Part shown: one piece after another, positions 4,256-35,417 of the stretch | How positions within the stretch are numbered: the stretch's first letter is position 1 | Layout: each line of letters opens with the position of its first letter | Assembly (NCBI GenBank): GCA_020725605.1 | Contig: DYER01000029.1 | Span: 1 to 60,375, forward strand | Source: Ammonifex sp. | GTDB taxonomy: Bacteria > Bacillota > Desulfotomaculia > Desulfotomaculales > DYER01 | Direction: 5' to 3' | DNA: 60,375 nt | Position numbers and translations under genes: made by a program | Notes under the pieces: generated by a model | What the model saw: only the letters and a program-made list of their open reading frames with translations | Told to the model about the DNA's origin: nothing | Databases searched by the model: none

Positions 4256-4266
4256 AGATTGGGGGG

Positions 4267-17081: not shown

Positions 17082-17096
17082 GCAATTTTCGTGCCA
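17082..17096 (-). promoter_or_regulatory. sigma-54 (-24/-12) promoter
   Basis: The minus strand reads TGGCACGAAAATTGC, an exact match to TGGCACG-N4-TTGC. It faces the esterase/lipase genes, about 390 nt upstream of ATG 16688. Confidence 0.7.
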
Positions 17097-17463: not shown

Positions 17464-17784
17464 TCAACCCGTAATGCTCTGGAGCTTCATGGCCAGGGCC
17501 ATGTCACCCTGCAGTTTAAGCTTGCCGCCCATGAAGGCCACCATGGCGTTGAGCTTGCCGGAAATCATGTCCACGAAATCTGCCGCCTCCATGGTTATGG
17601 TCACGTTGGGGTTGTCCGCCGTCCCCTCCTCAATGGTTCCGGCGCCGTCTTGGAACCTGAGTACGTAATTTCCACCGCCTTCTCCCTCCAGCACGAACTG
17701 GTAAACCGCCGTAACCCCCTGCATGGCTGCCGGCCTGGCCACCCTCTCCCTCAGCCTCTCCAGAACCTCCTGTACCGCGGCCAT
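17464..17784 (-). CDS. SCP2 sterol-carrier-like domain protein
   Basis: ATG 17784 follows AGAGGGGG. The sequence VYQFVLEGEGGGNYVLRF...ADFVDMISGKLNAMVAFMGGKLKLQGDMALAMKL is typical of SCP2. The upstream part of the track ORF overlaps the SDR gene. Confidence 0.8.
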   Translation of the reverse strand: MAAVQEVLERLRERVARPAAMQGVTAVYQFVLEGEGGGNYVLRFQDGAGTIEEGTADNPNVTITMEAADFVDMISGKLNAMVAFMGGKLKLQGDMALAMKLQSITG

Positions 17785-17825
17785 GGACTTTACCCCCTCT
17801 TTCGGAGTTTTATAAGTTTTCGGCG

Positions 17826-18596
17826 CTATACGGTGCTGCCCCCGTCCAGCACCAGCACGTGGCCCGTCACGTACGAGGAAGCCTCGCTGGCCAGATACAG
17901 CGCCGCCTGGGCCACCTCCTCGGGCTGGGCAATCCTTTTTATGGGCATGTACTTCATGTATTCTCCCATCAATGCCTCGTTCTTCCACAGCGTTTCGCTG
18001 AAACGGGTTTGCACCACCCCCGGGGCCACGGCGTTTACCCGTATGCCGTAGTCCCCCAATTCCAGGGCCAGGATCCTGGTCAGCATGATGACGCCGGCCT
18101 TGCTCAGGCAGTACAGGCCCATCCCGCGGACGGGCCTCAACCCGCCCGCGGAGGCGACGTTGACGATCACACCGCCCCCCTGCTGCATCATGTGCCTGGC
18201 CACCAGCTGGCTCAGGATAAAATACCCTTTCAGGTTCGTGTTCATGATCTGGTCGTAGACCTCTTCGCTCATCTCGGTTATGGGCCCCATGAGGGGACTG
18301 GTGGCCGCGTTGTTCACCAGAATGTCGATGCGGCCGAATTCGGCCGTTACCTTTGCGACCAGCGTCCGCAGTTCCTCCGGCTTCCGGTTGTGGGCCGGCC
18401 AGGCCAGGGCCCTTCTCCCCTCGGCCCTTATTTCTGCGGCCACTTTTTCCAGGTCGGGGAGCTTGCGGCTGCTTACGGCCACGTCCGCGCCGGCCCGGGC
18501 GAAAGTGAGCGCTACGGCCCGCCCGATGCCCCGGCTGCCTCCTGTTATAAGGGCCACCTTCCCGGCCAGAGACAACGACAACGAGGCGGCCTGCAT
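17826..18596 (-). CDS. SDR-family oxidoreductase (FabG-like)
   Basis: Motifs are GKVALITGGSRGIG, NNAA and a YxxxK-type region (YCLSKAG). Confidence 0.9.
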   Translation of the reverse strand: MQAASLSLSLAGKVALITGGSRGIGRAVALTFARAGADVAVSSRKLPDLEKVAAEIRAEGRRALAWPAHNRKPEELRTLVAKVTAEFGRIDILVNNAATSPLMGPITEMSEEVYDQIMNTNLKGYFILSQLVARHMMQQGGGVIVNVASAGGLRPVRGMGLYCLSKAGVIMLTRILALELGDYGIRVNAVAPGVVQTRFSETLWKNEALMGEYMKYMPIKRIAQPEEVAQAALYLASEASSYVTGHVLVLDGGSTV

Positions 18597-18958
18597 TAAC
18601 GATCCCCCTTCATTTCCCTGAAGCGCTCCAGAGTCTTCCCGGGCATCCCCGTCTCCCCTCCAAATCGGGTGAAGTCGGGATCGATGACGGCGCCGGGTAC
18701 CTGGCGATACCCTCGAGCCGGTCGACGGGATACCTCTTCTTCCGCATTCTTCAGCAGGTCTTCCTCGCTCTGGTGGATATGGCAGATGTAAGTGCCTAGC
18801 CTGCGTTCGCCTCTACGCTTTCTCTGCAATAACCGTACCAGAGGTGCCGCCGCCTCCGGCGGGCGACCGCGGTGGCCCGCAAAAAAACTGACGGTGCGAT
18901 TCGACACCGGTACGGTGCATGCCAACACCACCGCCGTCTGCGCGCTCCGGCCTGCCAC
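18596..18958 (-). CDS. hypothetical small protein (start and authenticity uncertain)
   Basis: The ORF stop overlaps the SDR ATG (TAATG), which suggests translational coupling. Only the C-terminal ~60 aa look protein-like, and I recognise no family. Confidence 0.3.
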   Translation of the reverse strand: MAGRSAQTAVVLACTVPVSNRTVSFFAGHRGRPPEAAAPLVRLLQRKRRGERRLGTYICHIHQSEEDLLKNAEEEVSRRPARGYRQVPGAVIDPDFTRFGGETGMPGKTLERFREMKGDR

Positions 18959-19008
18959 TCCCCGGCGGTGTACGAACGCACCACCGCATCGGAAAGCCTT
19001 GCCGCGAA

Positions 19009-20313
19009 CTATTTCAGGTACAACCCCAGATCGAACTCTTCCCGGTTTCTGTAGCGCTCGAAAATGTAATGACGGTACCTCACGTAATCGTTGTAGTCAC
19101 AGGCAATGCCCTCTTCCCTCATGGCCTTTTCGAATCTCTTCAGGTCCGGGGGGCATCCCGGAATGGGAATGGCCTTTCTGATGTGAGGATTATTCTTGTT
19201 CAGCTTACAGGCACATTGACCGAAAAGAACCGTTTTCGCAAACCCCGGCCCGGCCAGCTGTTGCTTTCCGGTCACCACTTCGATTCCCGGAAAAGGCTCC
19301 CCTTTAAAGGCCGACATCAGCATCACGAGCATGGGGTTGTAGAGCATGGAGCACCCGGTGCAGAGGGTGTTGTCGTATTTTCTCACGGCGAGGCCCGTGA
19401 TGCCGCGCTTTTCGAACCCAGCGGGGCCGGTATTGTCTTTCGTCCACTCCCAGTCGTAGTCCACGTAAGAGCTGTGCTTCGCGACCTCTTCTCCGCGCAC
19501 TTCGATGTCGGCCAGGTCCAGGCTCCGCCCGTGGCGCTCGGCAAAGTACTTTAAGGACGGCACCTCTGACGCGTCATAACCCATGATCGCCGCTCCCACC
19601 ACGTCGCAGGCCAGCGGGTCCCGGGAGGCGATGAGGAGGTCCTTGCGGTGGGCCTTGCCGGTGGGCCCCGGGCCTTTTTCCAGGGTGAAAATACCGTCGA
19701 TTATGGTCAACGCGACCGGTAGCTTCTCGACTATGTGGGGAAAAATGTAATTGAGGTCGGTCTCCGTATTGTGACAGAACATCTTCGACTTTCTGTCCAG
19801 GACACCTTTAAAGTTCTTTATTCCCAGGGACACCTTACACTGGTTGTGGGTCTTCAGTACCGGGACGTTGACGATCTTGTCGGCCTCCAGGGCCCTCCTC
19901 GCCACGGACAGCTTGAAGGTCCCGAAGTCCACCGGCACGAACTCTTCCTCGTTGAAGTCCACCAGCTCCACCCCGTAGTTTTCCCGGAGCTTCTCGTAGC
20001 CGAGGGTCCGGTATATGGCCTGGCCCATGGTCCTGGGCACCGGCCGGGAAGCCTCGCCGATGGTGATGTTGCGGAATCCCTCTTCCGCCAGGATCTGCAC
20101 CAGGGCGAACATCACGGCACTGGTGGTGACCACGCCGAAGGGCGGAAAGGGGAGGTCGAAGTCCCAGGTCACGAGGTTGGGCTTGATGAGGATTTTGTCG
20201 TGGCGCCGGAAGCCCTCGAATCCGCCGCAGAGCTCAAGGGCTTCCCTGAGGGAGCGGTAGACGTCTGTGCACTTGACGACGGAAACAACCGGTTTCACCA
20301 GCAACACCCCCAA
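19009..20313 (-). CDS. DUF362-domain protein
   Basis: The KILIKPNL hallmark and VVKCTDVY N-terminus are present. I placed the start at TTG 20313, after GGAGGGG; the track ORF begins at GTG 20382. Confidence 0.75.
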   Translation of the reverse strand: MGVLLVKPVVSVVKCTDVYRSLREALELCGGFEGFRRHDKILIKPNLVTWDFDLPFPPFGVVTTSAVMFALVQILAEEGFRNITIGEASRPVPRTMGQAIYRTLGYEKLRENYGVELVDFNEEEFVPVDFGTFKLSVARRALEADKIVNVPVLKTHNQCKVSLGIKNFKGVLDRKSKMFCHNTETDLNYIFPHIVEKLPVALTIIDGIFTLEKGPGPTGKAHRKDLLIASRDPLACDVVGAAIMGYDASEVPSLKYFAERHGRSLDLADIEVRGEEVAKHSSYVDYDWEWTKDNTGPAGFEKRGITGLAVRKYDNTLCTGCSMLYNPMLVMLMSAFKGEPFPGIEVVTGKQQLAGPGFAKTVLFGQCACKLNKNNPHIRKAIPIPGCPPDLKRFEKAMREEGIACDYNDYVRYRHYIFERYRNREEFDLGLYLK

Positions 20314-20425: not shown

Positions 20426-22354
20426 TCAGTGCGCCGACGACCCGCGGTTAAACCGCCGCCAGGCGGTCGTGCGGGAAATGCCCAGGACGCGGGCCACCAC
20501 GCTCTTGTTCCCCCCGTAGCGCACCCTGAGGTACTCCATCACCTGGCGCTCGATATCAGCCAGGGAGCCCAGCCGTATGACCATGCGTTCCCCTTCCTCG
20601 ACCGGGCCCTTGTCTCCCTGCTTCTCCGCCAGGAGCTCCCGCAGGAGGTCCTCGGCCCGGTCCGGCCGCTCCGAGCACAGTATTACCAGCCGCTCGATGA
20701 AGTTCTGCAGTTCCCTGGCGTTCCCCGGCCAGTCGTAAGAGGCCAGTAGCTCCCAGGTACCCGGCCGGATCTCGGGAAGCGGACAGCCCAGCCGCTGCGT
20801 CGCTTCGCGGGCGAAGAATTCGGCCAGTACCGGCACGTCCTCCCGCCTCTCCCGTAAGGGCGGAAGATCGAGACGCAGTACGTCCAGCCGGTAGTACAGG
20901 TCCTCCCGAAACTGCCCCGTGCCGACCATCTCGCTCAGGGACTTGTTGGTGGCGGCAATGACCCGGACGTCTACGGGAATTACCCGGTCTCCGCCGAGGC
21001 GCATCACGCAGCGTTCCTGGAGCACCCGCAGCAGCCTGGCCTGCAGGGCCGGCGTGATACTCCCGATCTCGTCCAGAAAAATGGTGCCCCCGTGCGCCAG
21101 CTCGAAGAGGCCCACCCGTCCGCCCCGCCGCGCACCCGTGAAGGCTCCCTCTTCGTACCCGAAGAGTTCCGACTCCAGCAGGTTTTCTGGAAGTGCCGCG
21201 CAGTTGACCGCCACAAACGGGCCCTGACGGCGGGGACTCGCGTTGTGAATGCTCTGGGCGAACAGCTCCTTTCCGGTGCCGCTCTCGCCCGTAATGAGCA
21301 CGGTGGAATCAAAGGCCGCGTAGCGCCGCGCCCTCTGCACCACCCGCTTCAGCAACGGGCTCCGCCCCACGACGTCTTCAAAGGTGAACCGGGCCACGAG
21401 CCCCTTCTGCGCCAGCTCCCGGCGAATCTTCTGCTCCAGTTGCTGTATCTTGCGCACGGGCTGAAGAGTAAAGACGTGGCAGCCGGCACTCGCCGGGGTT
21501 CCCTCCCGCTGGTCCTCTACGGCGATCTTGTTCACCACCAGTTGGGTATCTCTCAATTCGCAGAGAAACCCGTACCCGGCCGGCCCTTCCAGTATTTCGA
21601 CTATCCGCCGCGGCAGGTCGAGTTCCCGGGGTAGACGACCCAGCGCCTCCTTCTTATCCAGGAGCAGGAGACGCTCGGCCACCCGGTTGCACAGTGCCAG
21701 ACGACCGTCGGCACGGGTGACGAGGACGCCCACCCCGGTGTGGTCGATTACGGTCTGCAACAGCCGGCTCCGCGCCCGGTCCGTTTGCCGGGCCCTGGCA
21801 ATTTCCATTGCCCGTGCCATGGCCTGCCGCACCGCCACCGGCGACGATTCCACCACCACCCCCGTCATTCCCAGCCGGCCGGCGCGGGGAGGGATGCAGG
21901 CTCCCGTACCCACCACCACTCCGACGCCGAGTTCGCGGGCCCGCTCCAGCTGCGACCACAATTCGCCGAGGGACTCGTAGGTCAGGTGCAAAAAGGGCAC
22001 TCCCAGCAATTCCCGAATCCGGCCGAAGTCGATGTCCTCCTTTTCGTAGGCAAAGCCAACGTAGGCAATCCGTTCCGAGAGCTCTGTCGCCCGGCGCAAC
22101 GCGCAGAGAACGTCAAAGGCGTTTATTTCCACCAGCACTACGGGCGCGTGAAGGGAGCGCCGGATCAAATATCCGGTGGGGCCGCGGCTGACCAGTACCA
22201 GCACTTCGGACGCCAGCTGGCGGGCGGCCTCCACCCCCTCTTCCAGCACCGCCTCCACCACCCTGACCGACACCCCTTCTTCTGCGGCCCACCTCTTGAC
22301 CTCTGCCGTCAGCTCCGGGTAAGACGAGACCACACCGATCAGCGGAGTGCCCAA
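20426..22354 (-). CDS. sigma-54-dependent transcriptional activator, PrpR-like (PrpR_N + PAS + AAA+ + Fis-type HTH)
   Basis: The N-terminal PrpR-type domain is followed by GESGTGKE, GAFTGA and a C-terminal HTH (VARVLGISRTTAWRR). TTG start follows GGGGAGG. Confidence 0.9.
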   Translation of the reverse strand: MGTPLIGVVSSYPELTAEVKRWAAEEGVSVRVVEAVLEEGVEAARQLASEVLVLVSRGPTGYLIRRSLHAPVVLVEINAFDVLCALRRATELSERIAYVGFAYEKEDIDFGRIRELLGVPFLHLTYESLGELWSQLERARELGVGVVVGTGACIPPRAGRLGMTGVVVESSPVAVRQAMARAMEIARARQTDRARSRLLQTVIDHTGVGVLVTRADGRLALCNRVAERLLLLDKKEALGRLPRELDLPRRIVEILEGPAGYGFLCELRDTQLVVNKIAVEDQREGTPASAGCHVFTLQPVRKIQQLEQKIRRELAQKGLVARFTFEDVVGRSPLLKRVVQRARRYAAFDSTVLITGESGTGKELFAQSIHNASPRRQGPFVAVNCAALPENLLESELFGYEEGAFTGARRGGRVGLFELAHGGTIFLDEIGSITPALQARLLRVLQERCVMRLGGDRVIPVDVRVIAATNKSLSEMVGTGQFREDLYYRLDVLRLDLPPLRERREDVPVLAEFFAREATQRLGCPLPEIRPGTWELLASYDWPGNARELQNFIERLVILCSERPDRAEDLLRELLAEKQGDKGPVEEGERMVIRLGSLADIERQVMEYLRVRYGGNKSVVARVLGISRTTAWRRFNRGSSAH

Positions 22355-22421: not shown

Positions 22422-24059
22422 TCACGTCGTATCAGCAATTTCGCCGAGCCTTCCCTGGCCGTACAGCTCCCGTAAGGTTCTCTTGGAGAATTTGCCCACG
22501 CTGGTCTTGGGCACTTCCCTGACGAAAACGATCTCGTCCGGCAACCACCAGCGCGCCACCCTGCCGCGCAGGAAGTCGATGAGTTCCTCCCTGGTCACCT
22601 TACCCCTGGCCTCCGGCCGCAGGACCACACAGGCCAGGGGTCTTTCCTGCCACTTTTCGTGGGGTATGGCTATAACCGCCGCCTCGGCCACCGCGGGATG
22701 GGACATGAGGTGGTTTTCCAGGTCGACGGACGAGATCCATTCCCCGCCGCTCTTTATCAGGTCTCTGGTCCTGTCCGCCACCTGAACGTAGCCTTCCTCG
22801 TCAACGGTTACGATGTCGCCGGTTCTGAACCACCCGTCGACGAAGGCCTCCGCGGTGTTTTCGGGGTCCCTGTAATACTCCCTGAGTACCCATGGACCTT
22901 TCAACAGCAGCTCGCCCATTTCCTTCCCGTCGTGCCTGACCTCTTCGCCCTTTTCGTTGACGACCCGCATCTCCAGGCCGGGAAGCAACAACCCCGTCTT
23001 GGCCCGCAGGAGGTACTTCTCCGGTTCCGGCAAATCCCTGAGGTAGCTCTTGGGGTAGCACAGCAGGGTAACCGGCGTCGTTTCCGTTTGCCCGTAGCCC
23101 TGAATGAGCAGCACTCCCAGCTTCTTTTCGTATTCCTCCGCGAGCTTGGCCGGCATGGCCGCACCGCCCGAGATGAAAAAGCGCACGCAGCTGAAATCGT
23201 ACCGCCCCGGATGTTTCAGCGCATGGTCGAGGATCCCCATCCAGACGGTCGGGACGGCCGCCGCAATCGTCACCCTCTCCCGGTGGATCAGCTCGCACAG
23301 GTCCTCCGGCTGCGGCCGGCTACCGGGCAGTACCATCTTGGCGCCCATGAGGGTCTCCGAAAAAGGCCGGCACCAGGCGTTCACGTGAAACATGGGCACG
23401 ATGGGCATGCTTACGTCGCGTTCCCATGTTCCGTACTCCCCGGTGGCCATGGTAAGACTCAGCAGGTACAGGGCCCGGTGGGTGTAGACCACCCCTTTGG
23501 GAAACCCGGTGGTGGCGGTGGTGTAGGCCATGATGGCCGGCGTCCACTCGTCGAGGTACGGAAACTCGTAGGTCGGCGGCTCGCCGGCGAGGAGCTCCTC
23601 ATACGAGTAAACGGGCGACAGCGCCGTCTGCGGGAGCGTCGGTTTGTCGGTCATGATCACGTAGGCCCGAACGGTGTTGAGTTCCGACCGCACGTCTTCA
23701 ATGATGGGTACCAGGTCCTCGTCTACGAACAGGACCTTGTTTTCGGCAAAGTTGATGCAGTGGATAAGGTGATCCCGAAAGAGGCGAATGTTGACGGTAT
23801 TCAGAATTGCCCCGTAACACGGGACGGCAAAATACAGCTCCAGGTGGCGGTGGGTATTCCAGGCGAAAGAACCCACCCTCTCGCCGGGCCGAAGGTCCAG
23901 CCTTTTCAGAGCGTTGGCCAGCCGACAGACCCTCCGGTACATTTCGCCGTAGGTGTAACGGAACATTCCCGAAAAGTCCCGGCAGACAATTTCTTTCTTC
24001 GGAAAAATGGCGTGGGCCCGGTACAGAATGCTCCTCAGAGTAAGGGGATAGTCCATCAT
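22422..24059 (-). CDS. fatty-acid--CoA ligase (AMP-binding family)
   Basis: AMP-binding motifs YTTATTGFPKGV and GYGQTE, plus the C-terminal PKTSVGKFSKR. ATG 24059 follows GGAGGAG; the track start TTG 24068 lies inside the RBS. Confidence 0.9.
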   Translation of the reverse strand: MMDYPLTLRSILYRAHAIFPKKEIVCRDFSGMFRYTYGEMYRRVCRLANALKRLDLRPGERVGSFAWNTHRHLELYFAVPCYGAILNTVNIRLFRDHLIHCINFAENKVLFVDEDLVPIIEDVRSELNTVRAYVIMTDKPTLPQTALSPVYSYEELLAGEPPTYEFPYLDEWTPAIMAYTTATTGFPKGVVYTHRALYLLSLTMATGEYGTWERDVSMPIVPMFHVNAWCRPFSETLMGAKMVLPGSRPQPEDLCELIHRERVTIAAAVPTVWMGILDHALKHPGRYDFSCVRFFISGGAAMPAKLAEEYEKKLGVLLIQGYGQTETTPVTLLCYPKSYLRDLPEPEKYLLRAKTGLLLPGLEMRVVNEKGEEVRHDGKEMGELLLKGPWVLREYYRDPENTAEAFVDGWFRTGDIVTVDEEGYVQVADRTRDLIKSGGEWISSVDLENHLMSHPAVAEAAVIAIPHEKWQERPLACVVLRPEARGKVTREELIDFLRGRVARWWLPDEIVFVREVPKTSVGKFSKRTLRELYGQGRLGEIADTT

Positions 24060-24163
24060 TTTGAGCAACTCCTCCTTCCTTCAGAATCGATTTTGCCGGG
24101 CGCCGGGAATCGGCACAAAGGGGGGCGAAGGCGAAAACGAAGGGAGCGTCTCCCCTCTCGAAA

Positions 24164-25327
24164 TCACAACCAGTTCAGGGTCCCGTCCACGATGGCCCGC
24201 GAGATGATCTCGCGCTGGATTTCGCTGGTGCCTTCGACGATCATCAGCTGGCGGGCGTCCCGGTAGAAGCGCTCCATGGGGTAGTCCTTCATGTAGCCGT
24301 AACCTCCCAGAATCTGCAGGGCCCGGTGGGCGGTGCGTACCGCCACCTCGCTGGCGTAGGCCTTGGCAATGGAGAAGTACGGTGCCGCCTCCCTGCCCAC
24401 GCGGCCCTCGTCCACGATGAGCGCCGCCCGGTAAACCAGCCAGCGCGCGGCTTCGATTTCCATGGCCATCTCCGCCATCATCCACCGCAGACCCTGAAAG
24501 TCGCTAAGCGGCCTGCCGAAGGCCCGGCGCTGCCGGGCGTACTCCACCGCATACTGCAGGGCGCCCTCGGCCAAACCAAGGCCCCGGGCCGCCACCACCG
24601 GCCGCACCGAGTTCAGGCTCGACATGACCAGCTTGAATCCCTCGTTTTCTACCCCCACCAGCGCCCCGGCGGGCACCCGACAGTCCTCCAGAATCACCTC
24701 CGAAACCGGAACTCCTTTGACCCCCATCTTGCGCTCTACCTTGCCGATGGAGAGTCCCGGCGTCCCTCCGTCGACCACAAAGACGCTCACGCCCCTGTGG
24801 CCCGCCCCGGGGTTGGTTTTGGCCACCACCACGAAGAAATCCGCCACCGGAGCCCCGGAAATGAAACACTTGGTGCCGTTCAGGACGTAGTAATCTCCCC
24901 GGCGCTCGGCGCGGGTGCTTATGCCGGCCGCGTCGGACCCGGCCCCCGGCTCCGTCAGGCAGAAACAACCCCTCCTGGTCCCTTCACAGGTGCCGCGGAT
25001 GTACTTCTGCTTCTGGTCCTCGCTGCCGCCCAGGGCGATGGCCGAGGTGGAGAGTTTGGTCAGCAGCAGGATGAGGCCCGAGGCGCAGCAGTACTTGGCC
25101 ACCTCCTCCACTGCCAGGCAGAGGCCCAGCGTGCCCAGCCCGGAGCCGCCGTATTCCTCGGGATGGCAGATCCCCAGCAGGCCCGCCTCTTTGAAGGCCT
25201 GAAAGACGTCCTCCGGATACTCCCCGGTCTCGTCTATCTCGGCGGCCCGGGGCGCTATTTTCTCCCGGGCCAGCCGGCGCACCGTCTCCCGCAAAAGCCG
25301 CAGTTCGTCCGACAATCGAAAGTCCAT
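24164..25327 (-). CDS. acyl-CoA dehydrogenase
   Basis: The full-length ACAD pattern is present (CLTEPGAGSD, QILGGYGY, EGTSEIQ). Confidence 0.9.
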   Translation of the reverse strand: MDFRLSDELRLLRETVRRLAREKIAPRAAEIDETGEYPEDVFQAFKEAGLLGICHPEEYGGSGLGTLGLCLAVEEVAKYCCASGLILLLTKLSTSAIALGGSEDQKQKYIRGTCEGTRRGCFCLTEPGAGSDAAGISTRAERRGDYYVLNGTKCFISGAPVADFFVVVAKTNPGAGHRGVSVFVVDGGTPGLSIGKVERKMGVKGVPVSEVILEDCRVPAGALVGVENEGFKLVMSSLNSVRPVVAARGLGLAEGALQYAVEYARQRRAFGRPLSDFQGLRWMMAEMAMEIEAARWLVYRAALIVDEGRVGREAAPYFSIAKAYASEVAVRTAHRALQILGGYGYMKDYPMERFYRDARQLMIVEGTSEIQREIISRAIVDGTLNWL

Positions 25328-25345: not shown

Positions 25346-25765
25346 TCAGGTCATGGGCCGGAATTTAAACCCGTACCGTATCACTCCCTCCTCTTCGTAG
25401 ATGCGGCGGAAAACCGCTTCCACCCTCATGCCGATCCGGGGTCCCTCCTCCGGAGGGTCCACCATCTGGGCGATGATGCGCGGACCCTCGTCCAGTTCCA
25501 CCAGCACAACCGGGTAGCTTCCCTTGCAGGCCGCTTCGGCGGCGAATTCCGGGGGTGCGCCCGCGCCGGCGATTAACGTCCAGGAGTGCACGGTACCGCG
25601 CCCGCTTAAACGACATTCCTCAAAGTCCGCACCCACGCCGCAGTACCTGCACACCCCCTTGGGCGGGAAATTTACCCGTCCGCAGTTCCGGCATCTGAGC
25701 CCCACCAGCCGGTAGCGCTGGGGCACCGCGCGCTGGTACATCGGCACCGATATATGGGCGCCCAC
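25346..25765 (-). CDS. DUF35 Zn-ribbon/OB-fold protein (thiolase-associated scaffold)
   Basis: A CRNCGRVNFPPKGVCRYCG zinc ribbon is followed by an OB-fold segment. GTG start follows GAGGTGA. Confidence 0.85.
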   Translation of the reverse strand: MGAHISVPMYQRAVPQRYRLVGLRCRNCGRVNFPPKGVCRYCGVGADFEECRLSGRGTVHSWTLIAGAGAPPEFAAEAACKGSYPVVLVELDEGPRIIAQMVDPPEEGPRIGMRVEAVFRRIYEEEGVIRYGFKFRPMT

Positions 25766-25776
25766 GGGAGGTCACC

Positions 25777-26790
25777 TCACAGCAGTTGTTCCTTTAACCT
25801 GAGCTTAAGGTAGTGGAGGTAATCGATGTAGCGCTTTCGTTCCAGCCAGTAGTGCAGGCCGTGCGGCGGCCGCAGCACCGGTTCCCGGACGACAAAGCTC
25901 AGAGCCTGTCCCCCGCATCCCGAACCGTAGCCGGCCACGAGGATGCGGTCGCCCGGGGACGCCTGCTCCAGCACCGCGCAAAAGCCCAGCAGGGACGCGC
26001 ATACCCCGGTGTCTCCCACCCGGGCAAAAATCAGTCCGGCCTCCATTTGCTCGGAGGTGAAGCCCAACCGCCGTCCCAAACTCGCGGTCTGGCGCCCGTC
26101 GAACTGGGGCAGCACGACGTACCGGTAGTCGCCGGGCCGCCTTCCCAGCCGCTCCAGCAGGTCGCGCACCACGGCGCCTACCGTGGCGGCGTAGGCCTCG
26201 CCCGTGTAGGTCCTCACGCCCACGTCCCTTATGCGGACCGCCCCCCGCGGAACGAAGCGCTCCCCCAATCTCTCCGTCACCCGGGAGGCGGCGCCCTCGA
26301 ATTCCACGCCCCCGCTCCCCGCGGCAAGCACGAACGCGCAGGCCGCCGCTCCCAGGGCGTGGTCCAGGTCTTCCCCCGGGCCGGCCGCCGGGCAGTCCGC
26401 CGCCAGCACCAGTGCCGTTGCCTCTTCCCCGCCCAGCAGGGCGAGGGCCGAGAGCAGAGCCTCGGTGCCGGCCCGGGCGGAAGTACCCAGTTCGACAGAG
26501 GTCACCTTTTCCGGCAGGCCCAGGGCCGCCGCCACGGTGCCCGCCGCCATCTTTTCGGCGTACGGCAGAGTGGTGGAGGCGAGGGCCAGCACCCGGACCC
26601 CGGCGGCATCCACCAGGGCCAGGACCTGCCGCCCGGCCTCCACGGCCATGGTGACCGCGTCCTCGTCAAAGTCCGCTACCGCCTTTTCGCTGATGTCGGC
26701 GGCACACCGGCCCCACGCCTTCCGGTACTCGGCCCGGGTAAGTCGCAGGAACGGAACGTAGGTCGCACATGCGATAATCCGGCCGGCCAT
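25777..26790 (-). CDS. HMG-CoA synthase-like (thiolase-fold) protein, apparently lacking the catalytic Glu/Cys/His
   Basis: It resembles archaeal-type HMGCS (YVPFLRLTRAEY..., DEDAVTMAVEAG, GYGSG). The positions I align to the catalytic residues read STT, SARAGT and LPQFD. Confidence 0.75.
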   Translation of the reverse strand: MAGRIIACATYVPFLRLTRAEYRKAWGRCAADISEKAVADFDEDAVTMAVEAGRQVLALVDAAGVRVLALASTTLPYAEKMAAGTVAAALGLPEKVTSVELGTSARAGTEALLSALALLGGEEATALVLAADCPAAGPGEDLDHALGAAACAFVLAAGSGGVEFEGAASRVTERLGERFVPRGAVRIRDVGVRTYTGEAYAATVGAVVRDLLERLGRRPGDYRYVVLPQFDGRQTASLGRRLGFTSEQMEAGLIFARVGDTGVCASLLGFCAVLEQASPGDRILVAGYGSGCGGQALSFVVREPVLRPPHGLHYWLERKRYIDYLHYLKLRLKEQLL

Positions 26791-26796
26791 GGATCT

Positions 26797-27972
26797 TCAA
26801 GAGCCCCCCCTGTAGATGAACACGGTGGCCGTGCCTCCGGAGCCGCCCACATTGTGGGACAGGGCTATTTCCGCCCCGGGCACCTGCCGCGACGGTTCCA
26901 CGGCCTGACCACGCAGCTGGGCGAAAATCTCGCAGGCCTGCCCGCACCCCGTGGCGCCGAGGGGGTGCCCCTTGGCCTTCAGGCCGCCGCTGACGTTCAC
27001 CGGAAGCCTCCCCCCGAAAGAGGTGTGCCCCTCCTCCAGCAGCCGCGCCGCCTTTCCTTCCTCGCAAAAACCCAGGTCCTCGTAGGCCAGAAGCTCGGCG
27101 ATGGTAAAGCAGTCGTGGACCTCCGCGAGGTCGATGTCCCCGGGACCCAGCCCCGCCCGCTCGTACGCGGCCCGGGCCGCCTTGCGGGCGGCCCTGAGTT
27201 TCGTGATGTCGGCCCGGTCGTGGAGGGCCAGGTAATCGCCCGCCGCCCCGAAGCCGGCGACGTAAACCGGGCGGTCGGTGAACTCCCGGGCCAGCTCGGC
27301 GCTGCAAATCAGGACCAGGGCCGCCCCGTCGCTGGTGGGGCTGCAGTCCCAGATGTTCAGCGGATGGGCGACCATCGGACCCTCCATGGCCTCCTCCAGG
27401 GTAACCGCCCGGCGGAACTGCGCCTTCGGGTTGGCCACGGCGTGACGGTGATTCTTGACCGCCACCAGGGACAGTTGCCTGCGGGTCAACCCGTATTCGA
27501 ACATGTACCGGTTGGCCATAAGGGCGTAGATTCCGGCGAAGGTGCAGCCGGCCAGTCTCTCGTACTCCGTGTCTCCGGAAACACCCAGCCAGTATCTCCC
27601 CTTCTGGCCCGAGAGGTCGCGCATTTTCTCGACGCCGCCCGCCAGTACCACCTTGAAGTGTCCCGAGGCCACCGCGCAAACGGCGGCGTAAAGGGCAAAT
27701 CCTCCGGAAGCGCAGGCGTTTTCGAGCCTCACCGCCGGTACGTGGGGCAGGCCCACGTAGCCCAGCAGCAGCGGAGCCAGCTGCCCCAGCTGGAACCCTC
27801 CCCCGGCGCTCAGGCAACCCAGATAGGCCGCCTCGATCATGGCCGGGTCCAGACCTTTGTCCACGCTTTTGAGCATTTCGAAGTACGCCTCGGCGAAAAG
27901 CTCCTTAACCCCTTTTTCGGGAAAGTCGCCGAAAGCGGTCTGTCCCGCCCCGACGATGGCCACCTGCTTCAC
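26797..27972 (-). CDS. SCP-x-type thiolase (acetyl-CoA acetyltransferase family)
   Basis: The N-terminus VAIVGAGQTAFG, the nucleophile motif NACASGG and the C-terminal GHPLGATGCGQ are present. Confidence 0.9.
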   Translation of the reverse strand: MKQVAIVGAGQTAFGDFPEKGVKELFAEAYFEMLKSVDKGLDPAMIEAAYLGCLSAGGGFQLGQLAPLLLGYVGLPHVPAVRLENACASGGFALYAAVCAVASGHFKVVLAGGVEKMRDLSGQKGRYWLGVSGDTEYERLAGCTFAGIYALMANRYMFEYGLTRRQLSLVAVKNHRHAVANPKAQFRRAVTLEEAMEGPMVAHPLNIWDCSPTSDGAALVLICSAELAREFTDRPVYVAGFGAAGDYLALHDRADITKLRAARKAARAAYERAGLGPGDIDLAEVHDCFTIAELLAYEDLGFCEEGKAARLLEEGHTSFGGRLPVNVSGGLKAKGHPLGATGCGQACEIFAQLRGQAVEPSRQVPGAEIALSHNVGGSGGTATVFIYRGGS

Positions 27973-27990: not shown

Positions 27991-29142
27991 TCAGGCATAC
28001 TCTTTGAGCAATTCGTTGGCCACGATCAGGCGCTGTATTTCGTTGGTGCCCTCGTATATGCGGGTGATGCGGGCGTCGCGGTAGAAGCGCTCGATGGGGA
28101 AGTCCTTCATGTAGCCCATGCCCCCGTAAATCTGAACCGCCCTGTCGGCCACCCGCCCCAGAACCTCGGAGGCGAACAGCTTTACCATGGCCGCCTCTTT
28201 CACGCAGCGGAACCCCTGGTCCACCATCCAGGCCACCTGGCGGGTTAAGGCCCTGGCCGCCGCGGTCTCCGCGGCCATGTCCGCCAGCATCCACTGAATC
28301 GCCTGGAAAGAAGCTATCGGCTGGCCGAACTGCACCCGCTGCTGCGCGTACTTAATGCACAGCTCCAGCAGCTTTTCGCAGGCTCCCACACAGCGGGCGC
28401 CGAGGGTTACCCGGCCGCGGCCCAGAATGCGCAGGGCGTTGGCGTACCCGCGACCTTCCTCGCCCAGAAGGTTTGCGGCCGGCACCTCGCAATTGTCGAA
28501 GATCAGTTCCGAGGTCTGAGAACCGCGCAGGCCCATCTTTTTCTCGATGGTGCCGACGGAAAACCCCGGAAAGCCCTTTTCCACCAGAAAGGCGCTGAAG
28601 CCCCCGCGGGCCCCTTTCTGCCGGTCCGTGACGGCGATCACCGTCACCACGTCCGCGATGGGGCCGTTGGTTATGAAATGCTTCACCCCGTTGATGATCC
28701 ACCTGTCCCCCTGTCGCACGGCCGTGGTTTTCAGATTGGTGGCGTCGGACCCGGCTTCCGGCTCGGTCAGCGCAAAGGCACCGATCTTCTCGCCCCGCGC
28801 CATCGGCGGGAGGTACTTTCTCTTCTGGTCTTCGGTGCCCAATTCCACGATGCCGGTGCACCCTATGCCGATGTTGGTCCCGATGACACTCACGAAGCCG
28901 GCCGGTGCCCGACCCAGCTCCTCCAGCAGCAGACAGCGCTCCAGCATGCTCAGACCGAGGCCGCCGTACTCCTCGGGTATGCTCATGCCGAAAAGCCCCA
29001 TCTCCCGGGCCTTCCGGATGAGGTGTTCGGGAACCCGGTCCTCTTCCTCGATCTGCCGGGCGTAGGCGTCCACCTCACCGTCCACAAACTCCCGGACGGT
29101 GCGCTTCATGGCCTGCATCTCTTCGGAAACGGTGAAATCCAT
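27991..29142 (-). CDS. acyl-CoA dehydrogenase
   Basis: The ACAD pattern is present (ALTEPEAGSD, QIYGGMGY, EGTNEIQ). Confidence 0.9.
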   Translation of the reverse strand: MDFTVSEEMQAMKRTVREFVDGEVDAYARQIEEEDRVPEHLIRKAREMGLFGMSIPEEYGGLGLSMLERCLLLEELGRAPAGFVSVIGTNIGIGCTGIVELGTEDQKRKYLPPMARGEKIGAFALTEPEAGSDATNLKTTAVRQGDRWIINGVKHFITNGPIADVVTVIAVTDRQKGARGGFSAFLVEKGFPGFSVGTIEKKMGLRGSQTSELIFDNCEVPAANLLGEEGRGYANALRILGRGRVTLGARCVGACEKLLELCIKYAQQRVQFGQPIASFQAIQWMLADMAAETAAARALTRQVAWMVDQGFRCVKEAAMVKLFASEVLGRVADRAVQIYGGMGYMKDFPIERFYRDARITRIYEGTNEIQRLIVANELLKEYA

Positions 29143-29171: not shown

Positions 29172-29948
29172 TCAGCGTCCTTTGAAATTGGGGCTGCGCT
29201 TTTCCAGAAACGCTCCGGTTCCCTCCAGCCGGTCCTCGGTGTAAAACGCCACCGTCTGGGCGAGCTTCTCAAACAGCAGCCCGGTGTTAATGTCGCTGTT
29301 GCTACCCACGTTGATGGCCATTTTGGCCAGGCCCACGGCCACGGGACCTTTGGCGATGATCCGGTTCGCCACGTCCCGCACCGCGTCCATGAGCTGCTCC
29401 GGAGGCACCACCCGGTTGACCAGGCCGATCCGTTCGGCCTCCGCCGCGTCGATAATGGCCCCGGTGAAGATGAGTTCCTTGGCCTTCCCCAAACCCACCA
29501 GCCGCTGCAGGCGCTGGGTACCTCCGGCGCCGGGAATGATGCCCAGGCCCACTTCGGGCTGTCCCAGGCGCGAGCGGTCCGTGGCAATTCTTATGTCGCA
29601 GGCCATGGCCAGCTCGCAGCCGCCGCCCAGCGCGAAACCGTCGATGGCCGCGATGACCGGTTTTTCCAGGCTTTCGATTTCGTTCAGCGTCTCCTGGGCC
29701 TCGCCCCTGAGGACCTCCAGGGCGTGACGTTCCCTCAGCACCCGGATGTCGGCTCCCGAGGCAAAGGCCTTTCCTCCCGCGCCGGTGATGACCACCACGC
29801 GGACTTCGTCGTCCTGCCGGCATTGACGGATGGCGGCGCGGATTTCCGACCAGGTGGCCGGGTCCAGGGCGTTCCGCACCTCCGGCCGGTTCAGGGTGAT
29901 AAAGGCAATGTTTCCGTCCTTCCGGAACAGGATGTTCCGGTATGCCAC
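29172..29948 (-). CDS. enoyl-CoA hydratase (crotonase family)
   Basis: Motifs ITLNRPEVRNAL, GAGGKAFASGADI and GGGCELAMACD. The GTG start lies 1 nt after the hbd stop. Confidence 0.9.
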   Translation of the reverse strand: MAYRNILFRKDGNIAFITLNRPEVRNALDPATWSEIRAAIRQCRQDDEVRVVVITGAGGKAFASGADIRVLRERHALEVLRGEAQETLNEIESLEKPVIAAIDGFALGGGCELAMACDIRIATDRSRLGQPEVGLGIIPGAGGTQRLQRLVGLGKAKELIFTGAIIDAAEAERIGLVNRVVPPEQLMDAVRDVANRIIAKGPVAVGLAKMAINVGSNSDINTGLLFEKLAQTVAFYTEDRLEGTGAFLEKRSPNFKGR

Positions 29949-29949: not shown

Positions 29950-30822
29950 TCATCCCCTCCTCTCCCTTTCTCCGCCGTACTCGTAAAAGCCCCTGCCGGT
30001 TTTGCGCCCCCACTCGCCCCGCACGAACTTCTCCACGATGGTGGGGGAGGGTTTGTGGGCGGGATCGCCGGTCCTCTGGTAGCGCTCCATGGCCACGTGG
30101 TAACTGAGGTCGATGCCCGTGAGGTCCAGCAACCGGAAGGGCCCCATGGGATGGCCCAGGCCGTGAACCACGGCGGTGTCGATGTCCTCGTACGAGGCGA
30201 CTCCCGTCTCGTAGAGATAGAGGGCCTCGTTCCTGATGGCCGTGAGGATGCGGTTGACCAGAAAGCCTTCCACCTCCTTGCGCAGCAGGACCGGAATCTT
30301 GCCCATCCTCCTGGCCGCTTCCATGACCGCGTCCACCGTACTTTGCGCCGTATGGGGCCCTTTGACCACCTCCACGAGTTTCATTACCAGCGCCGGGTTG
30401 AAGAAGTGCATGTTGCACACTCTGGCGGGGCGCCGGGTGGCATCGGCCAGGCGCGAGCTCACTATGTAGGAGCTGTTGGTCGCGAGGACGGCGTCGGGCG
30501 GGCATAAAGAATCCAGTTCCGCGAAAACCTGCCTCTTGACGGCCAGTTTCTCGACCACCGCCTCGATGACCAGGTCCGCGTCGCCCGCCGCCTCGCCCAG
30601 ATCCCCGGTAAATCGAAGCGCGGCCCGCGCCCGGTCCGCCTGGCCCTGGGTGAGCTTTCCCTTTGCCACCCGCCCGGCAAGGTACCCGTCGACGAACTCC
30701 GACGCCTTACGCAGCGCCTCCTCGCTCACGTCGTGACACTTCACGCGGTAGCCGGCCATGGCCGCCACCAGCGCGATCTGCTGGCCCATCACACCGGCGC
30801 CAACCACGCAGACGTTTTCCAC
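29950..30822 (-). CDS. hbd: 3-hydroxyacyl-CoA (3-hydroxybutyryl-CoA) dehydrogenase
   Basis: The Rossmann motif VCVVGAGVMG, plus NSSYI and MHFFNPA. GTG start follows GGTGAGGTGGG. Confidence 0.9.
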   Translation of the reverse strand: MENVCVVGAGVMGQQIALVAAMAGYRVKCHDVSEEALRKASEFVDGYLAGRVAKGKLTQGQADRARAALRFTGDLGEAAGDADLVIEAVVEKLAVKRQVFAELDSLCPPDAVLATNSSYIVSSRLADATRRPARVCNMHFFNPALVMKLVEVVKGPHTAQSTVDAVMEAARRMGKIPVLLRKEVEGFLVNRILTAIRNEALYLYETGVASYEDIDTAVVHGLGHPMGPFRLLDLTGIDLSYHVAMERYQRTGDPAHKPSPTIVEKFVRGEWGRKTGRGFYEYGGERERRG

Positions 30823-30914: not shown

Positions 30915-30930
30915 TGCAATGGCCGTGCCC
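30915..30930 (-). promoter_or_regulatory. sigma-54 (-24/-12) promoter of the beta-oxidation cluster
   Basis: The minus strand reads GGGCACGGCCATTGCA, with correct GG-N10-GC spacing and 15/16 match to TGGCACG-N4-TTGCA. It lies about 93 nt upstream of the hbd GTG. Confidence 0.7.
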
Positions 30931-32101: not shown

Positions 32102-32770
32102 TCAACGGAAGGGGGCACAACCCCTTTCGGGGCCACAGCCAGACCTCAACCGCCGCAGGAAATCCTCAAAGAGTTCGGGCGCCCTTTCCACCAGCCCCGG
32201 TCGCACAACCGCCAGTCCCCTTGCCTCTTGCGGGTACGCCGGTTTCAGTTGTTGCCACCGTCGCTCCAGCAAATCTACTCGGGATGCAAGTACGTCCGCG
32301 CAGATCCTGACCAGGCTTTCGGCGCCGCTCTCGGTCGCGGCCGCCACGTCAACGACGTCTCGGACCTTAAGGGTTTCCGGACGGTAAAAAAGCTTTTTCG
32401 TGACTATTTCGGCCGCGGTTTCCACGCGAATTTCCCTGCCGCCGATTTTTTCCCAGGTGCAATTCGGGCTCGTCAGGTACGGAGCTATGATGAGGTCCAC
32501 GACCCCTTTCCCGAAAAAGAGCTTTAAGAACCACGAAGCTTCCTCGTAGTCGCGGACCACGGCGGCCACATCTCCGTTCAGGCGGGGCGTCACCAGAAGT
32601 AAGAGCTGGGCGTCGGTCAGGAAGATGTCGACGTCGTTACTGACGCGGTGGTTCAGGCGGAAGGCCAGGGCGGTACCGCCCCCGAAGGACCACTCCTCGG
32701 GGGCAATCCCCGCCCCGTCCAGGATACCCGCGGCCGTATCCAGAAGATCCTTCCAGTCGTGAGGGGTCAC
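32102..32770 (-). CDS. AbiEii/DUF1814-family nucleotidyltransferase toxin (type IV TA)
   Basis: The motif FGGGTALAFRLNHRVSNDVDIF is the GGTAL...RxSxDxD NTase motif. GTG 32770 overlaps the upstream stop (GTGA). Confidence 0.75.
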   Translation of the reverse strand: MTPHDWKDLLDTAAGILDGAGIAPEEWSFGGGTALAFRLNHRVSNDVDIFLTDAQLLLLVTPRLNGDVAAVVRDYEEASWFLKLFFGKGVVDLIIAPYLTSPNCTWEKIGGREIRVETAAEIVTKKLFYRPETLKVRDVVDVAAATESGAESLVRICADVLASRVDLLERRWQQLKPAYPQEARGLAVVRPGLVERAPELFEDFLRRLRSGCGPERGCAPFR

Positions 32771-33072
32771 GGGCCGAGCATCTCCTCCAGCTCCCGGTTG
32801 GGATAGAGCTCCTTCACGTGGAGCCTGTAGTAAGCCAGAAGTTCTTCCGGTGCAATCCCGTGTGCGTCCAGGAATCCGGCCACCAGCCGGAGGGGTGTGT
32901 CGGTGAAGAAGTTGACCACGTGGACGCGGCGGTCCTCCGGCAGCCGCATGCTCCTGATGAGCTCTGCCAACTCTTCTTCGCGCACATAATTCAGGGTCTG
33001 GGCATTCACGATGAGTTCCACCGGGGAAAACAGTACCGCATCCCGGCGGTCCGTGCCCCGCACACCCGACAC
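32767..33072 (-). CDS. putative cognate antitoxin of the AbiEii-like toxin
   Basis: A 101-aa ORF has a 4-nt overlap with the toxin start. I recognise no family motif; the call rests on position and coupling. Confidence 0.5.
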   Translation of the reverse strand: MSGVRGTDRRDAVLFSPVELIVNAQTLNYVREEELAELIRSMRLPEDRRVHVVNFFTDTPLRLVAGFLDAHGIAPEELLAYYRLHVKELYPNRELEEMLGP

Positions 33073-33172
33073 CCCCGTTTTTGGAAGGAGTACCTGGGAC
33101 CATTATAGCCGCCCGCCGGCAAAAATACCACTCCCTGGCGCTGCCGGTCGGGCGCGGCGCAGGCGGACGCCG

Positions 33173-33545: not shown

Positions 33546-35417
33546 CTAAATGCCCAGGGCCACACGCTTCTTGTCGATGTGGGCCGCGATGCCCTCGGCC
33601 ACGGCCACCGGGTCGTCGCCCACGGCCAGCTTGCCGCCGGTGAGTTGCTCCACGTCCTCGGTGAGGAGCTTTACCACCTCGGGCGAGCCGGTGACCGGCG
33701 GGGTGGGCGAGACGTGGGTGTAGAGGCCGAAGGCCACGGCGCCGAAGGCGTCCACCACCGCTTTTTGCTCCAGGTACTCGGGCGCGGTGACGGCCGCCGG
33801 CAACTGCGAGGGGTCGATGCCCAGGGCCCCGGCCACGGCCGTGGCCAGTAGTATCAGCCGGCCGGTGTCGGCGCAGGTGCCGAAGGAGAGCACGGGCGGC
33901 ACGCCCAGCTGCCGGCACACGGCCCTCAGGCCCGGTCCGGCTGCTTGCGCCGCCTCGCGGGTGGTGAGTCCGGCCACCTGGCAGGCCGCGTTGCCGCACC
34001 CCGCGGAGAGCACCAGCAGGTCGCGGCGGATGAGTTCGCGGGCCACGCCCACGTTGAGGGCGTCCTGGGGGCCGTTGCCCAGGCTGGTGCAGCTCACCAG
34101 CACCACAACGCCCTTAATGGTTCCCTTCTTGATGACCTCCAGCAGCGGGTCCAGGCTGCCGCCCAGGGCCTGCAGCACGGCCTCGGTGGAGAAGCCGGTG
34201 AGGACCCGGATGGAGCGCAGGCCCCTCACGGCCTCCCGGCCCTTGCGCCGGCGGAAGTTGTCCACGGCCATCTCGATGAGCCGCCGGGCCTGCTCCTCGA
34301 CCTTCTCCGGCTCGTAGTCCAGATGATCCGCGGTGCCCGGCAGGTTGACGAGGGGCGAGACGGGCACCAGGGTCACGCCGTACTTCTCCGCGTACAGGCC
34401 CAGGCTGGGCAGGGAGCAGTTCATGTCCATGGCCAGCAGGTCCACGGCGCCCGTGGCCAGGGCGTACTCCTGGGTGATCCAGTTGCCGGTCAGCCCCCGG
34501 AAGACGTCGTCGGCGGCGAAGCGCTGCATCAGCTCCTGGCCGGTCTCGATGGATCCGATGATGCGCACTCCCCTCGCGCCGGCGGCGCGGGCCAGTTCCT
34601 GAATTTCGGGCCGGCGGGCCACCTCAATCAGGGCCGCGCCCACGAAGGGCTTGTGGCCGTGGGGCAGGACGTTGACGTAATCCGGGTCCAGGATGCCCAG
34701 GTCCACCTCGGCCTCGTGGGGCTGCGGGGTGCCGAAGAGGATGTCCTGGACGATCTCCAGGGGCACCAGGGCGCCGTAAACCGTGGCCAGTCCCAGGCGC
34801 AGGCCCGCCTTGGCCAGGGTGACGTAGTGGCCGTCGATGCTGGTCATGGTGCGGGTGGTGGTCTCCAGCAGCTCGTGGAGGGGACCGCCGGGAAGGATGC
34901 CCAGTTCCCGCCACACCTTCTTGCGGCTCTCGGGCGCGAACTTTTCCACGAAGGTTCCGGGCCGGTCCGTACCCTCGTGCAGGGCGGCCAGCACGGCGTC
35001 GGCCACGGCCGCCGCGCGCTCGGACGCGCTTCCCGCCGGCACGCCCAGCTGATCGGCAAACAAGTGCAGTTTGGCCTCGTCCCTGATCCCGTAGGGCGTT
35101 TTGCCGGCCGCGGTCGCTTTAAGGGTGCGGGCCGCCTCCTTGCAGTGGTAGGTGTAGGCCGCGGCCCCGAACTTGGCCCGGTGCACCATGTTGCGCATGA
35201 CCATGGCCGCGCCGTCGATGCCGCAGGCGCCCCTCTCCACCTTACCCGGCACCACGCGGCAGGGGCCGTTGCTGCACAACTGGCAGCTTAAGCCCCGCAT
35301 GCAGAACTGCTTACAGCGCACCTTCTCCTGATCGGCGAAACGGTCCGCCACGTTGGTGAGTCCCGCGGCCCTGATGCGCTCGTACATGGCGTTGACGGTC
35401 TCGTGGTGACTGATCAC
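33546..35417 (-). CDS. cooS: anaerobic carbon-monoxide dehydrogenase catalytic subunit family (CooS-type)
   Basis: The N-terminal Cys pattern is CKQFCMRGLSCQLCSNGPCR...GACG. Other motifs are HGHKP, MDMNC, SAGCGNAA and SFGTCAD. GTG start follows GGGGAGG. Confidence 0.85.
   Translation of the reverse strand: MISHHETVNAMYERIRAAGLTNVADRFADQEKVRCKQFCMRGLSCQLCSNGPCRVVPGKVERGACGIDGAAMVMRNMVHRAKFGAAAYTYHCKEAARTLKATAAGKTPYGIRDEAKLHLFADQLGVPAGSASERAAAVADAVLAALHEGTDRPGTFVEKFAPESRKKVWRELGILPGGPLHELLETTTRTMTSIDGHYVTLAKAGLRLGLATVYGALVPLEIVQDILFGTPQPHEAEVDLGILDPDYVNVLPHGHKPFVGAALIEVARRPEIQELARAAGARGVRIIGSIETGQELMQRFAADDVFRGLTGNWITQEYALATGAVDLLAMDMNCSLPSLGLYAEKYGVTLVPVSPLVNLPGTADHLDYEPEKVEEQARRLIEMAVDNFRRRKGREAVRGLRSIRVLTGFSTEAVLQALGGSLDPLLEVIKKGTIKGVVVLVSCTSLGNGPQDALNVGVARELIRRDLLVLSAGCGNAACQVAGLTTREAAQAAGPGLRAVCRQLGVPPVLSFGTCADTGRLILLATAVAGALGIDPSQLPAAVTAPEYLEQKAVVDAFGAVAFGLYTHVSPTPPVTGSPEVVKLLTEDVEQLTGGKLAVGDDPVAVAEGIAAHIDKKRVALGI

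Follow-up and report, generated by a model that had tools for sequence, protein, structure and literature searches.

We analyzed a 60,375-nucleotide stretch of Ammonifex sp. DNA (the window; GenBank assembly GCA_020725605.1, contig DYER01000029.1) that carries three adjacent genes encoding an archaeal-type thiolase, a protein resembling HMG-CoA synthase (HMGCS), and a DUF35 protein. With a probability of about 0.72, this trio encodes a heteromeric thiolase complex that degrades 3-ketoacyl-CoA and in which the HMGCS-like protein plays a structural role. The evidence comes from the gene anatomy, a thiolase with its motifs intact, an HMGCS-like gene that has lost the catalytic tetrad yet is under purifying selection, and conserved synteny with catabolic genes. 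The three open reading frames (ORFs) lie on the minus strand and match exactly those named in a first-pass annotation made from the sequence alone:

26797-27972 (-), archaeal-type (SCP2-like) thiolase, 391 amino acids (aa), proposed catalytic subunit (NF004720, 476 bits against a cutoff of 420)
25777-26790 (-), HMGCS-like pseudoenzyme subunit, 337 aa (alignments, AlphaFold2 model, Foldseek, dN/dS)
25346-25765 (-), DUF35 protein, 139 aa, with a CxxC...CxxC zinc ribbon and an OB fold, presumed clamp (Pfam)

Only 6 nt separate the thiolase and HMGCS-like genes and 11 nt the HMGCS-like and DUF35 genes, and the three co-localize as in the HMGS/ACAT/DUF35 tripartite architecture. The description of the trio as archaeal in style was borne out: among all PDB sequences, the top match of each protein was its cognate chain in 6ESQ, with 316 bits for the thiolase (6esq_A), 132 bits for the HMGCS-like protein, and 91 bits for the DUF35 protein (6esq_E). 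The Pfam domains are Thiolase_N (E = 1e-26) and Thiolase_C_1 (E = 1e-46) for the thiolase, and zf-ChsH2 and OB_ChsH2_C for the DUF35 protein, which retains both CxxC pairs of the zinc ribbon; for the HMGCS-like protein, ACP_syn_III_C alone was detected.

The HMGCS-like protein has lost the Glu-Cys-His-Asn (ECHN) tetrad of HMGCS, for which we use the numbering of the Methanothermococcus thermolithotrophicus (Mt) enzyme. In a HMMER alignment to 6esq_I and an independent MAFFT alignment, which agreed, window residues T73, A105, P228, and D260 align to Mt E82, C114, H238, and N270. Three of these substitutions (Glu to Thr, Cys to Ala, and His to Pro) had been proposed in the first-pass annotation from the peptides ASTTLPYAEKM, TSARAGTEAL, and VLPQFDGRQ, all of which are present in the 337-aa protein. 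All three proved correct by both methods, and a fourth was found, Asn to Asp at D260; the alignment to characterized HMGCS that had been suggested as a check places no Glu, Cys, or His at the catalytic positions. The numbering of the tetrad is corroborated by the work of Liao et al., because the archaeal mut4 variant described there (E82C/C114G/H238Q/N270D), which makes no HMG-CoA, is altered at the identical positions (PMC12960953).

Beyond the tetrad, a comparison of 53 true HMGCS with the 40 members of the window protein's clade found about 45 other columns where conservation of at least 90% in the true enzymes is absent from the clade. These include S83, F112, Q145, D150, T186, D188, F189, R192, H200, and F204-P208, as well as Y210, F211, H213, P240, N241, F244, Y272, and D305. 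Nine other columns are conserved in both groups with a different residue in each (E79, S104, H144, E173, G176, D189, D231, D260, and G262). The AlphaFold2 model of the protein, built from an 18-sequence alignment (pLDDT 87, pTM 0.89), has the HMGCS fold of the thiolase superfamily. In Foldseek, its best matches were the 6ESQ HMGCS chains (TM 0.87-0.89; 6esq_I 0.89), followed by PhlA (0.86), MucA (0.84), and the MvaS proteins of Enterococcus faecalis and Staphylococcus aureus (~0.83). The protein has kept the fold and lost the chemistry.

The thiolase, by comparison, is intact, as had been claimed from its peptides NACASGG and GHPLGATGCGQ. Its CxS motif (Cys87-A-S, within ENACASG), HDxF motif (H286-D-C288-F), and GHx motif (G-H336-P) are placed identically in the Mt thiolase, and the three motifs are also intact in essentially all members of the clade. 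The window trio combines a dead HMGS tetrad with a thiolase that carries CxS, HDxF, and GHx.

The trio lies within an eight-gene cluster on the same strand, in the order 3-hydroxyacyl-CoA dehydrogenase (HADH), enoyl-CoA hydratase (ECH), acyl-CoA dehydrogenase (ACAD), thiolase, HMGCS-like protein, DUF35 protein, ACAD, and fatty-acid-CoA ligase; the trio thiolase is the only one found in this cluster. The earlier placement of the trio in a beta-oxidation operon was supported. The other genes and regulatory elements are:

29950-30822 (-), 3-hydroxyacyl(butyryl)-CoA dehydrogenase, first gene of the operon (Pfam 3HCDH_N, E = 1e-62, and 3HCDH, E = 5e-30; best NCBIfam matches 3-hydroxyacyl/3-hydroxybutyryl-CoA dehydrogenases)
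29172-29948 (-), enoyl-CoA hydratase (crotonase) (Pfam ECH_1, E = 1e-69; best NCBIfam match short-chain enoyl-CoA hydratase PRK05809)
27991-29142 (-), acyl-CoA dehydrogenase (Pfam Acyl-CoA_dh_N, _M, and _1)
24164-25327 (-), second acyl-CoA dehydrogenase (Pfam Acyl-CoA_dh_N, _M, and _1)
22422-24068 (-), AMP-forming fatty-acid-CoA ligase (Pfam AMP-binding, E = 3e-77; NF004837, 577 bits against a cutoff of 476)
20426-22354 (-), sigma-54-dependent activator with a PrpR_N sensor (Pfam Sigma54_activat, E = 2.5e-70, PrpR_N, HTH_8)
30916-30930 (-), sigma-54-type promoter-like site GGGCACGGCCATTGC, one mismatch to TGGCAC-N5-TTGC, ~95 nt upstream of the first operon gene

The activator, encoded downstream of the cluster, is likely the regulator of the beta-oxidation operon, and homologs of it are found near the trio in four related loci (L004, L010, L017, and L018 of our locus set). 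The window is enriched in sites that match TGGCAC-N5-TTGC with at most one mismatch: it has 14, two of them perfect, where 4.6 would be expected, and a count of 14 was not attained in any of 100 shuffles. Other sites of this type lie at 17082-17096 (-), 36579-36593 (-), and 18826-18840 (-), and the window encodes two sigma-54 activators, the one listed above and another at 37873-39831.

Comparisons with related Desulfotomaculia showed that the HMGCS-like gene is under purifying but relaxed selection. In genome pairs, dN was 0.15-0.17 for the HMGCS-like gene, ~0.05 for the thiolase gene, and 0.07-0.10 for the DUF35 gene, so that amino acid change is about three times faster in the HMGCS-like subunit than in the thiolase. 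Omega was ~0.11-0.26 for the HMGCS-like gene versus 0.03-0.10 for the thiolase gene, values that are trustworthy only at dS <= ~1.3, dS being near saturation in many pairs. Identity to the window proteins follows the same trend, with 43-54% for the HMGCS-like protein, 65-71% for HADH, 69-77% for ECH, 71-83% for ACAD, 71-76% for the thiolase, and 66-79% for the DUF35 protein. A gene that is maintained by selection yet evolves about threefold faster shows the pattern expected of a structural pseudoenzyme. With the ORF intact in over 40 genomes and an omega of ~0.15, a decaying pseudogene was rejected.

Only 1 of 120 homologs of the HMGCS-like protein retrieved from a large protein database has the ECHN tetrad. 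The closest 18 are unfused proteins of ~335-370 aa, while most of the others are HMGCS-like/DUF35 fusions of 460-500 aa. A profile of the clade, run against 1.84 billion cluster representatives, gave 741 matches at E <= 1e-30, and Cys114 is missing in 143 of the best 150 of these (86 unfused and 57 fused). This is a large family, not a rare one.

Three arrangements were distinguished in a scan of genomes. True HMGCS with the ECHN tetrad, found in Chloroflexota, Thermoproteota, and others, are encoded in the order HMGCS, thiolase, DUF35 in those sampled loci where a thiolase gene is adjacent. The window clade (T/A-x-x-D at the tetrad positions) is unfused and has the order thiolase, HMGCS-like, DUF35, which is conserved in 24 related loci. 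It includes Desulfoscipio geothermicus, Desulfofundulus thermosubterraneus, Desulfotruncus alcoholivorax, Desulfovirgula, and other Bacillota metagenome-assembled genomes (MAGs), as well as archaeal MAGs of Bathyarchaeia, Helarchaeota, and a Euryarchaeota, and a 1.4-Mb Methanobacteriota chromosome. In the third arrangement, found in Syntrophales, Spirochaetales, and others, a fused dead HMGCS-DUF35 gene precedes the thiolase gene. A neighbor-joining (NJ) tree separates the three and places PhlA beside true HMGCS; this tree is midpoint-rooted without bootstrap and is provisional. HMGCS variants with partial degeneration were also seen: Anaerolineae MAGs (L063, L065, and L082) encode "EGHS" variants of HMGCS that keep Glu and His and have Gly at Cys114, and a Caldiserica "SGHD" protein (L041) groups with PhlA in the NJ tree.

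The genomes closest to the window by their HMGCS-like protein (43-54% identity) are Desulfotomaculia, and the block HADH, ECH, ACAD, thiolase, HMGCS-like, DUF35 is syntenic in ~11 Desulfotomaculia/Bacillota loci. In one metagenomic relative, further genes extend this block: a second ECH, ACAD, and thiolase, an Fe-alcohol dehydrogenase, and an aldehyde:ferredoxin oxidoreductase. Elsewhere, a pair of genes for the 3-oxoacid CoA-transferase subunits adjoins the trio instead of beta-oxidation genes, as in a bacterial MAG (L005, 6947-8655), a Bathyarchaeia (L020, 5074-6792), and a Methanobacteriota (L021, 9425-11120). This suggests that the CoA-transferase and the dead trio form an acetoacetate-catabolic module common to both domains. 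These two kinds of genes are the usual neighbors of the trio in this clade, and the beta-oxidation and CoA-transferase contexts both call for thiolysis of a short 3-ketoacyl-CoA.

In the mechanism that we propose, the complex would be derived from the archaeal acetoacetyl-CoA thiolase/HMGCS/DUF35 complex. Its thiolase, with Cys87 as the nucleophile and with the HDCF and GHP motifs, would carry out the CoA-dependent thiolysis of a 3-ketoacyl-CoA supplied by the neighboring acyl-CoA dehydrogenases, crotonase, and 3-hydroxyacyl-CoA dehydrogenase. A short-chain substrate is probable, the smallest being acetoacetyl-CoA. The HMGCS-like protein would have no condensing activity and would be kept as a structural subunit that, clamped by the zinc-ribbon/OB-fold DUF35 protein, stabilizes the thiolase dimer and supplies its own half of an interfacial CoA-binding chamber. 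That the three proteins associate into a complex is predicted from homology and conserved synteny. The thiolase of this lineage may be active only as part of the heteromer, which would explain why the HMGCS-like and DUF35 subunits have been retained. This proposal is made by homology and from published data: in MucABC, the thiolase subunit alone (MucB) is inactive, and complexes with a dead HMGS still have the interfacial CoA chamber. The fatty-acid-CoA ligase, the PrpR-type sigma-54 activator, the sigma-54-like promoter, a secreted lipase, and a polyhydroxyalkanoate (PHA)-depolymerase-like esterase make up a catabolic context in the window. The prediction that the trio cleaves acetoacetyl-CoA and does not condense is drawn from the catabolic setting of its genes here and in related loci.

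The archaeal Mt complex (PDB 6ESQ/6ET9; Voegeli et al. 2018) is the best match for all subunits and shares its thiolase motifs and the zinc ribbon of its DUF35 protein with the window trio. The Mt complex, however, has an active HMGCS (ECHN) and channels acetoacetyl-CoA to HMG-CoA for the mevalonate pathway, whereas the window trio has a dead site and a catabolic context; the order of its genes also differs from that of the sampled true-HMGCS loci with an adjacent thiolase. A functional parallel is found in the ACAT/HMGS-DUF35 complex of Pseudomonas fluorescens (PfACAT/HMGS-DUF35), in which the tetrad is dead and HDxF intact. This complex cleaves acetoacetyl-CoA and forms neither acetoacetyl-CoA nor HMG-CoA; its H294Y variant loses thiolysis activity (PMC12960953). 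Like this complex, the window trio lacks the E-C-H-N tetrad, keeps the thiolase Cys, HDxF, and GHx, and has no polyketide synthase (PKS) or nonribosomal peptide synthetase (NRPS) neighbor. The pseudoenzyme scaffold put forward in the first-pass annotation is the best fit to these data and agrees with the published biochemistry of this related fused complex (PMC12960953). The two systems differ in that HMGS and DUF35 are fused in the P. fluorescens type (~460-500 aa) and encoded before the thiolase, whereas the window has separate ORFs of 337 and 139 aa, with the thiolase first. The P. fluorescens complex was called an evolutionary intermediate without an assigned pathway (PMC12960953), while the window trio is part of a complete beta-oxidation operon.

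Some points weigh against a degradative complex with a purely structural subunit. The characterized thiolytic example is a fused protein, and the unfused clade of the window clusters apart from the fused forms in the NJ tree. The set of thiolase, Hbd, Crt, and Bcd-like ACAD can also run synthetically in butyrate-forming anaerobes. Finally, the nine switched columns, all of them conserved with another residue in true HMGCS, look like a selected, remodeled pocket rather than plain decay, so that the role of the subunit may go beyond that of a scaffold. A pocket of this kind, containing the invariant H144 and D260 and the near-invariant E79, E173, D189, and D231, could be a new site for ligand binding, gating, or catalysis, with possible roles in controlling entry of the pantetheine arm, in binding an effector, or in a Cys-independent reaction. 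We consider such a non-inert subunit unlikely. Some of the switched columns are next to former catalytic residues, omega is well under 1, and the clade is an old one with members in both domains. Nevertheless, the subunit evolves about three times faster than its partners and has neither the Cys nor a compensating nucleophile; the loops corresponding to Mt 184-213, which bind substrate in true HMGCS, lack conservation and are modeled with low confidence, and the dead-HMGS relatives that have been tested use the thiolase site only (PMC12960953). Little weight is likewise given to the wider proposal that the unfused clade is an ancient catabolic thiolase module of archaea and Bacillota, whose non-vestigial subunit took on a new role with its remodeled pocket.

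A complex running in the direction of condensation (reverse beta-oxidation, butyrate, or fatty-acid synthesis) appears improbable. On the model of the archaeal KT/DUF35 fatty-acid synthase assembly, DUF35 and the dead HMGCS would recruit the next enzyme and so pull an endergonic Claisen condensation forward; the KT/DUF35 pair of Sulfolobus acidocaldarius binds a reductase and a dehydratase and supports fatty-acid synthesis, and Hbd-, Crt-, and Bcd-like enzymes are present in the operon. However, the last gene of the operon encodes an AMP-forming fatty-acid-CoA ligase, hydrolases are encoded nearby, the cluster contains neither an NADPH enoyl-CoA reductase nor a MaoC dehydratase, and the relatives occur in fatty-acid-oxidizing Desulfotomaculia or beside CoA-transferases. 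The tested dead-HMGS complex also did not condense acetyl-CoA (PMC12960953). It is very doubtful that the trio is a Friedel-Crafts C-acyltransferase, CoA-independent or acetyl-CoA-dependent, of the type of PhlACB from Pseudomonas protegens and MucABC from Streptococcus macacae (PDB 5M3K/5MG5, 9VBO). These systems have the same three-subunit composition, with a dead HMGS-like PhlA or MucA and catalysis by the thiolase-like subunit, and the window HMGCS-like protein matches PhlA with 111-118 bits in addition to its structural similarity to PhlA (TM 0.86) and MucA (TM 0.84). PhlC and MucB, however, have lost HDxF, have remodeled acceptor pockets for small-molecule acceptors, and are encoded in antibiotic clusters (PMC12960953), whereas the window thiolase keeps HDCF. 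Moreover, the window thiolase and DUF35 protein score 316 and 91 bits to the archaeal complex versus ~120 and 29-34 bits to PhlC and PhlB, the neighboring genes are those of beta-oxidation rather than PKS or NRPS genes, and the clade is apart from PhlA in the NJ tree. The retained HDxF and the gene context rule out an acyltransferase of the Phl/Muc type.

The first-pass annotation had also offered a repurposed lyase or aldolase comparable to Ltp2, and this part did not stand. In the Ltp2 aldolase, the thiolase-fold subunit itself is Cys-less, which is the reverse of the window, where the thiolase keeps Cys87, HDCF, and GHP and the degenerate partner is an HMGCS paralog. An Ltp2-like aldolase does not fit a thiolase that has Cys87, and the window thiolase scores only 121 bits to Ltp2 (6ok1_A) versus 316 bits to 6esq_A. 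Ltp2-ChsH2(DUF35), the benzoylsuccinyl-CoA thiolase BbsAB, and Saci_1121/1120 do resemble the window trio in pairing an SCP2-type thiolase-fold enzyme with DUF35 in acyl-CoA metabolism, but they have no HMGCS-like third subunit.

There is next to no chance that the window protein is a genuine HMG-CoA synthase, which is what automatic annotation would call it. It should be noted that it passes NCBIfam NF003274 (PRK04262, an "equivalog" for HMG-CoA synthase with a cutoff of 244) with 250 bits, as do 9 of 10 tetrad-less relatives with 251-322 bits (L001, L008, L016, L017, L019-L021, L024, and L043), and JGI names relatives "hydroxymethylglutaryl-CoA synthase". Against this, TIGR00748 is failed by the window protein (170 bits versus a cutoff of 353) and by all relatives tested, all four catalytic residues are gone, and the archaeal enzyme no longer forms HMG-CoA once its tetrad is substituted (PMC12960953). 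The two family models disagree, and the residue-level evidence overrides the NF003274 pass, and the absence of the tetrad refutes this assignment.

Further genes surround the operon. Downstream on the same strand are an SDR gene and genes for two hydrolases. One hydrolase is an 858-aa secreted lipase (12649-15225, -) with Lipase_2, Lipase_C, AF_1763-like_C, and three SLH repeats, a cell-wall-anchored protein of the Archaeoglobus AF1763 type. The other is the 436-aa PHA-depolymerase-like esterase (15378-16688, -), which scored 138.6 bits against a cutoff of 150 for the type 1 catalytic domain of extracellular short-chain-length PHA depolymerases and hints at a locus that degrades polyesters or lipids into short acyl units. 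The G+C content is 0.54-0.60 at 14001-20000, a stretch covering the lipase, esterase, and SDR genes, versus 0.64-0.75 in most of the window, and this stretch may have been acquired separately. Just upstream of the operon are genes for an AbiEii-like nucleotidyltransferase toxin of a type IV toxin-antitoxin system (32102-33103, -) and a Prismane/CO-dehydrogenase-family (hybrid-cluster) protein (33546-35417, -). Fe-S oxidoreductases typical of anaerobes are encoded a few kb away at 668-3205 (+), 3796-5370 (+), and 9322-10536 (+); one has LUD, 4Fe-4S, and CCG domains, one is FrhB/FdhB-like, and one is HdrD-like with 4Fe-4S and CCG. The window ORFs that were scanned include no electron-transfer flavoprotein gene.

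Thiolase complexes with a dead HMGCS have already been described (PhlA, MucA, and the fused P. fluorescens protein; Liao et al. 2026), and the window trio is a further example. Since such bacterial complexes have been published, the finding opens no new question. Liao et al. (Nat Commun 2026) mined 1,030 bacterial HMGS/ACAT/DUF35 clusters with Pfam PF08541, PF00108, and PF01796 and found 1,001 of them to be unrelated to secondary metabolism (PMC12960953); this mining would probably capture the isolates found here too. When we searched the literature for further accounts of a dead HMGCS subunit in beta-oxidation, only this study and the PhlACB work came up. The analysis adds an uncharacterized unfused lineage that is also archaeal, its catabolic contexts, its remodeled but conserved pocket, and its mis-naming by NF003274. 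Automatic annotation will mis-name the clade as HMG-CoA synthase, which makes false mevalonate-pathway calls possible in Bacillota and archaeal MAGs. The unfused clade represents a third lineage, present also in Bathyarchaeia, Helarchaeota, and Methanobacteriota MAGs. In the window, its thiolase is the sole one found in a sigma-54-controlled beta-oxidation operon that is syntenic across Desulfotomaculia, which argues for a working catabolic thiolase complex and gives a physiological setting to a class that was published as an evolutionary intermediate.

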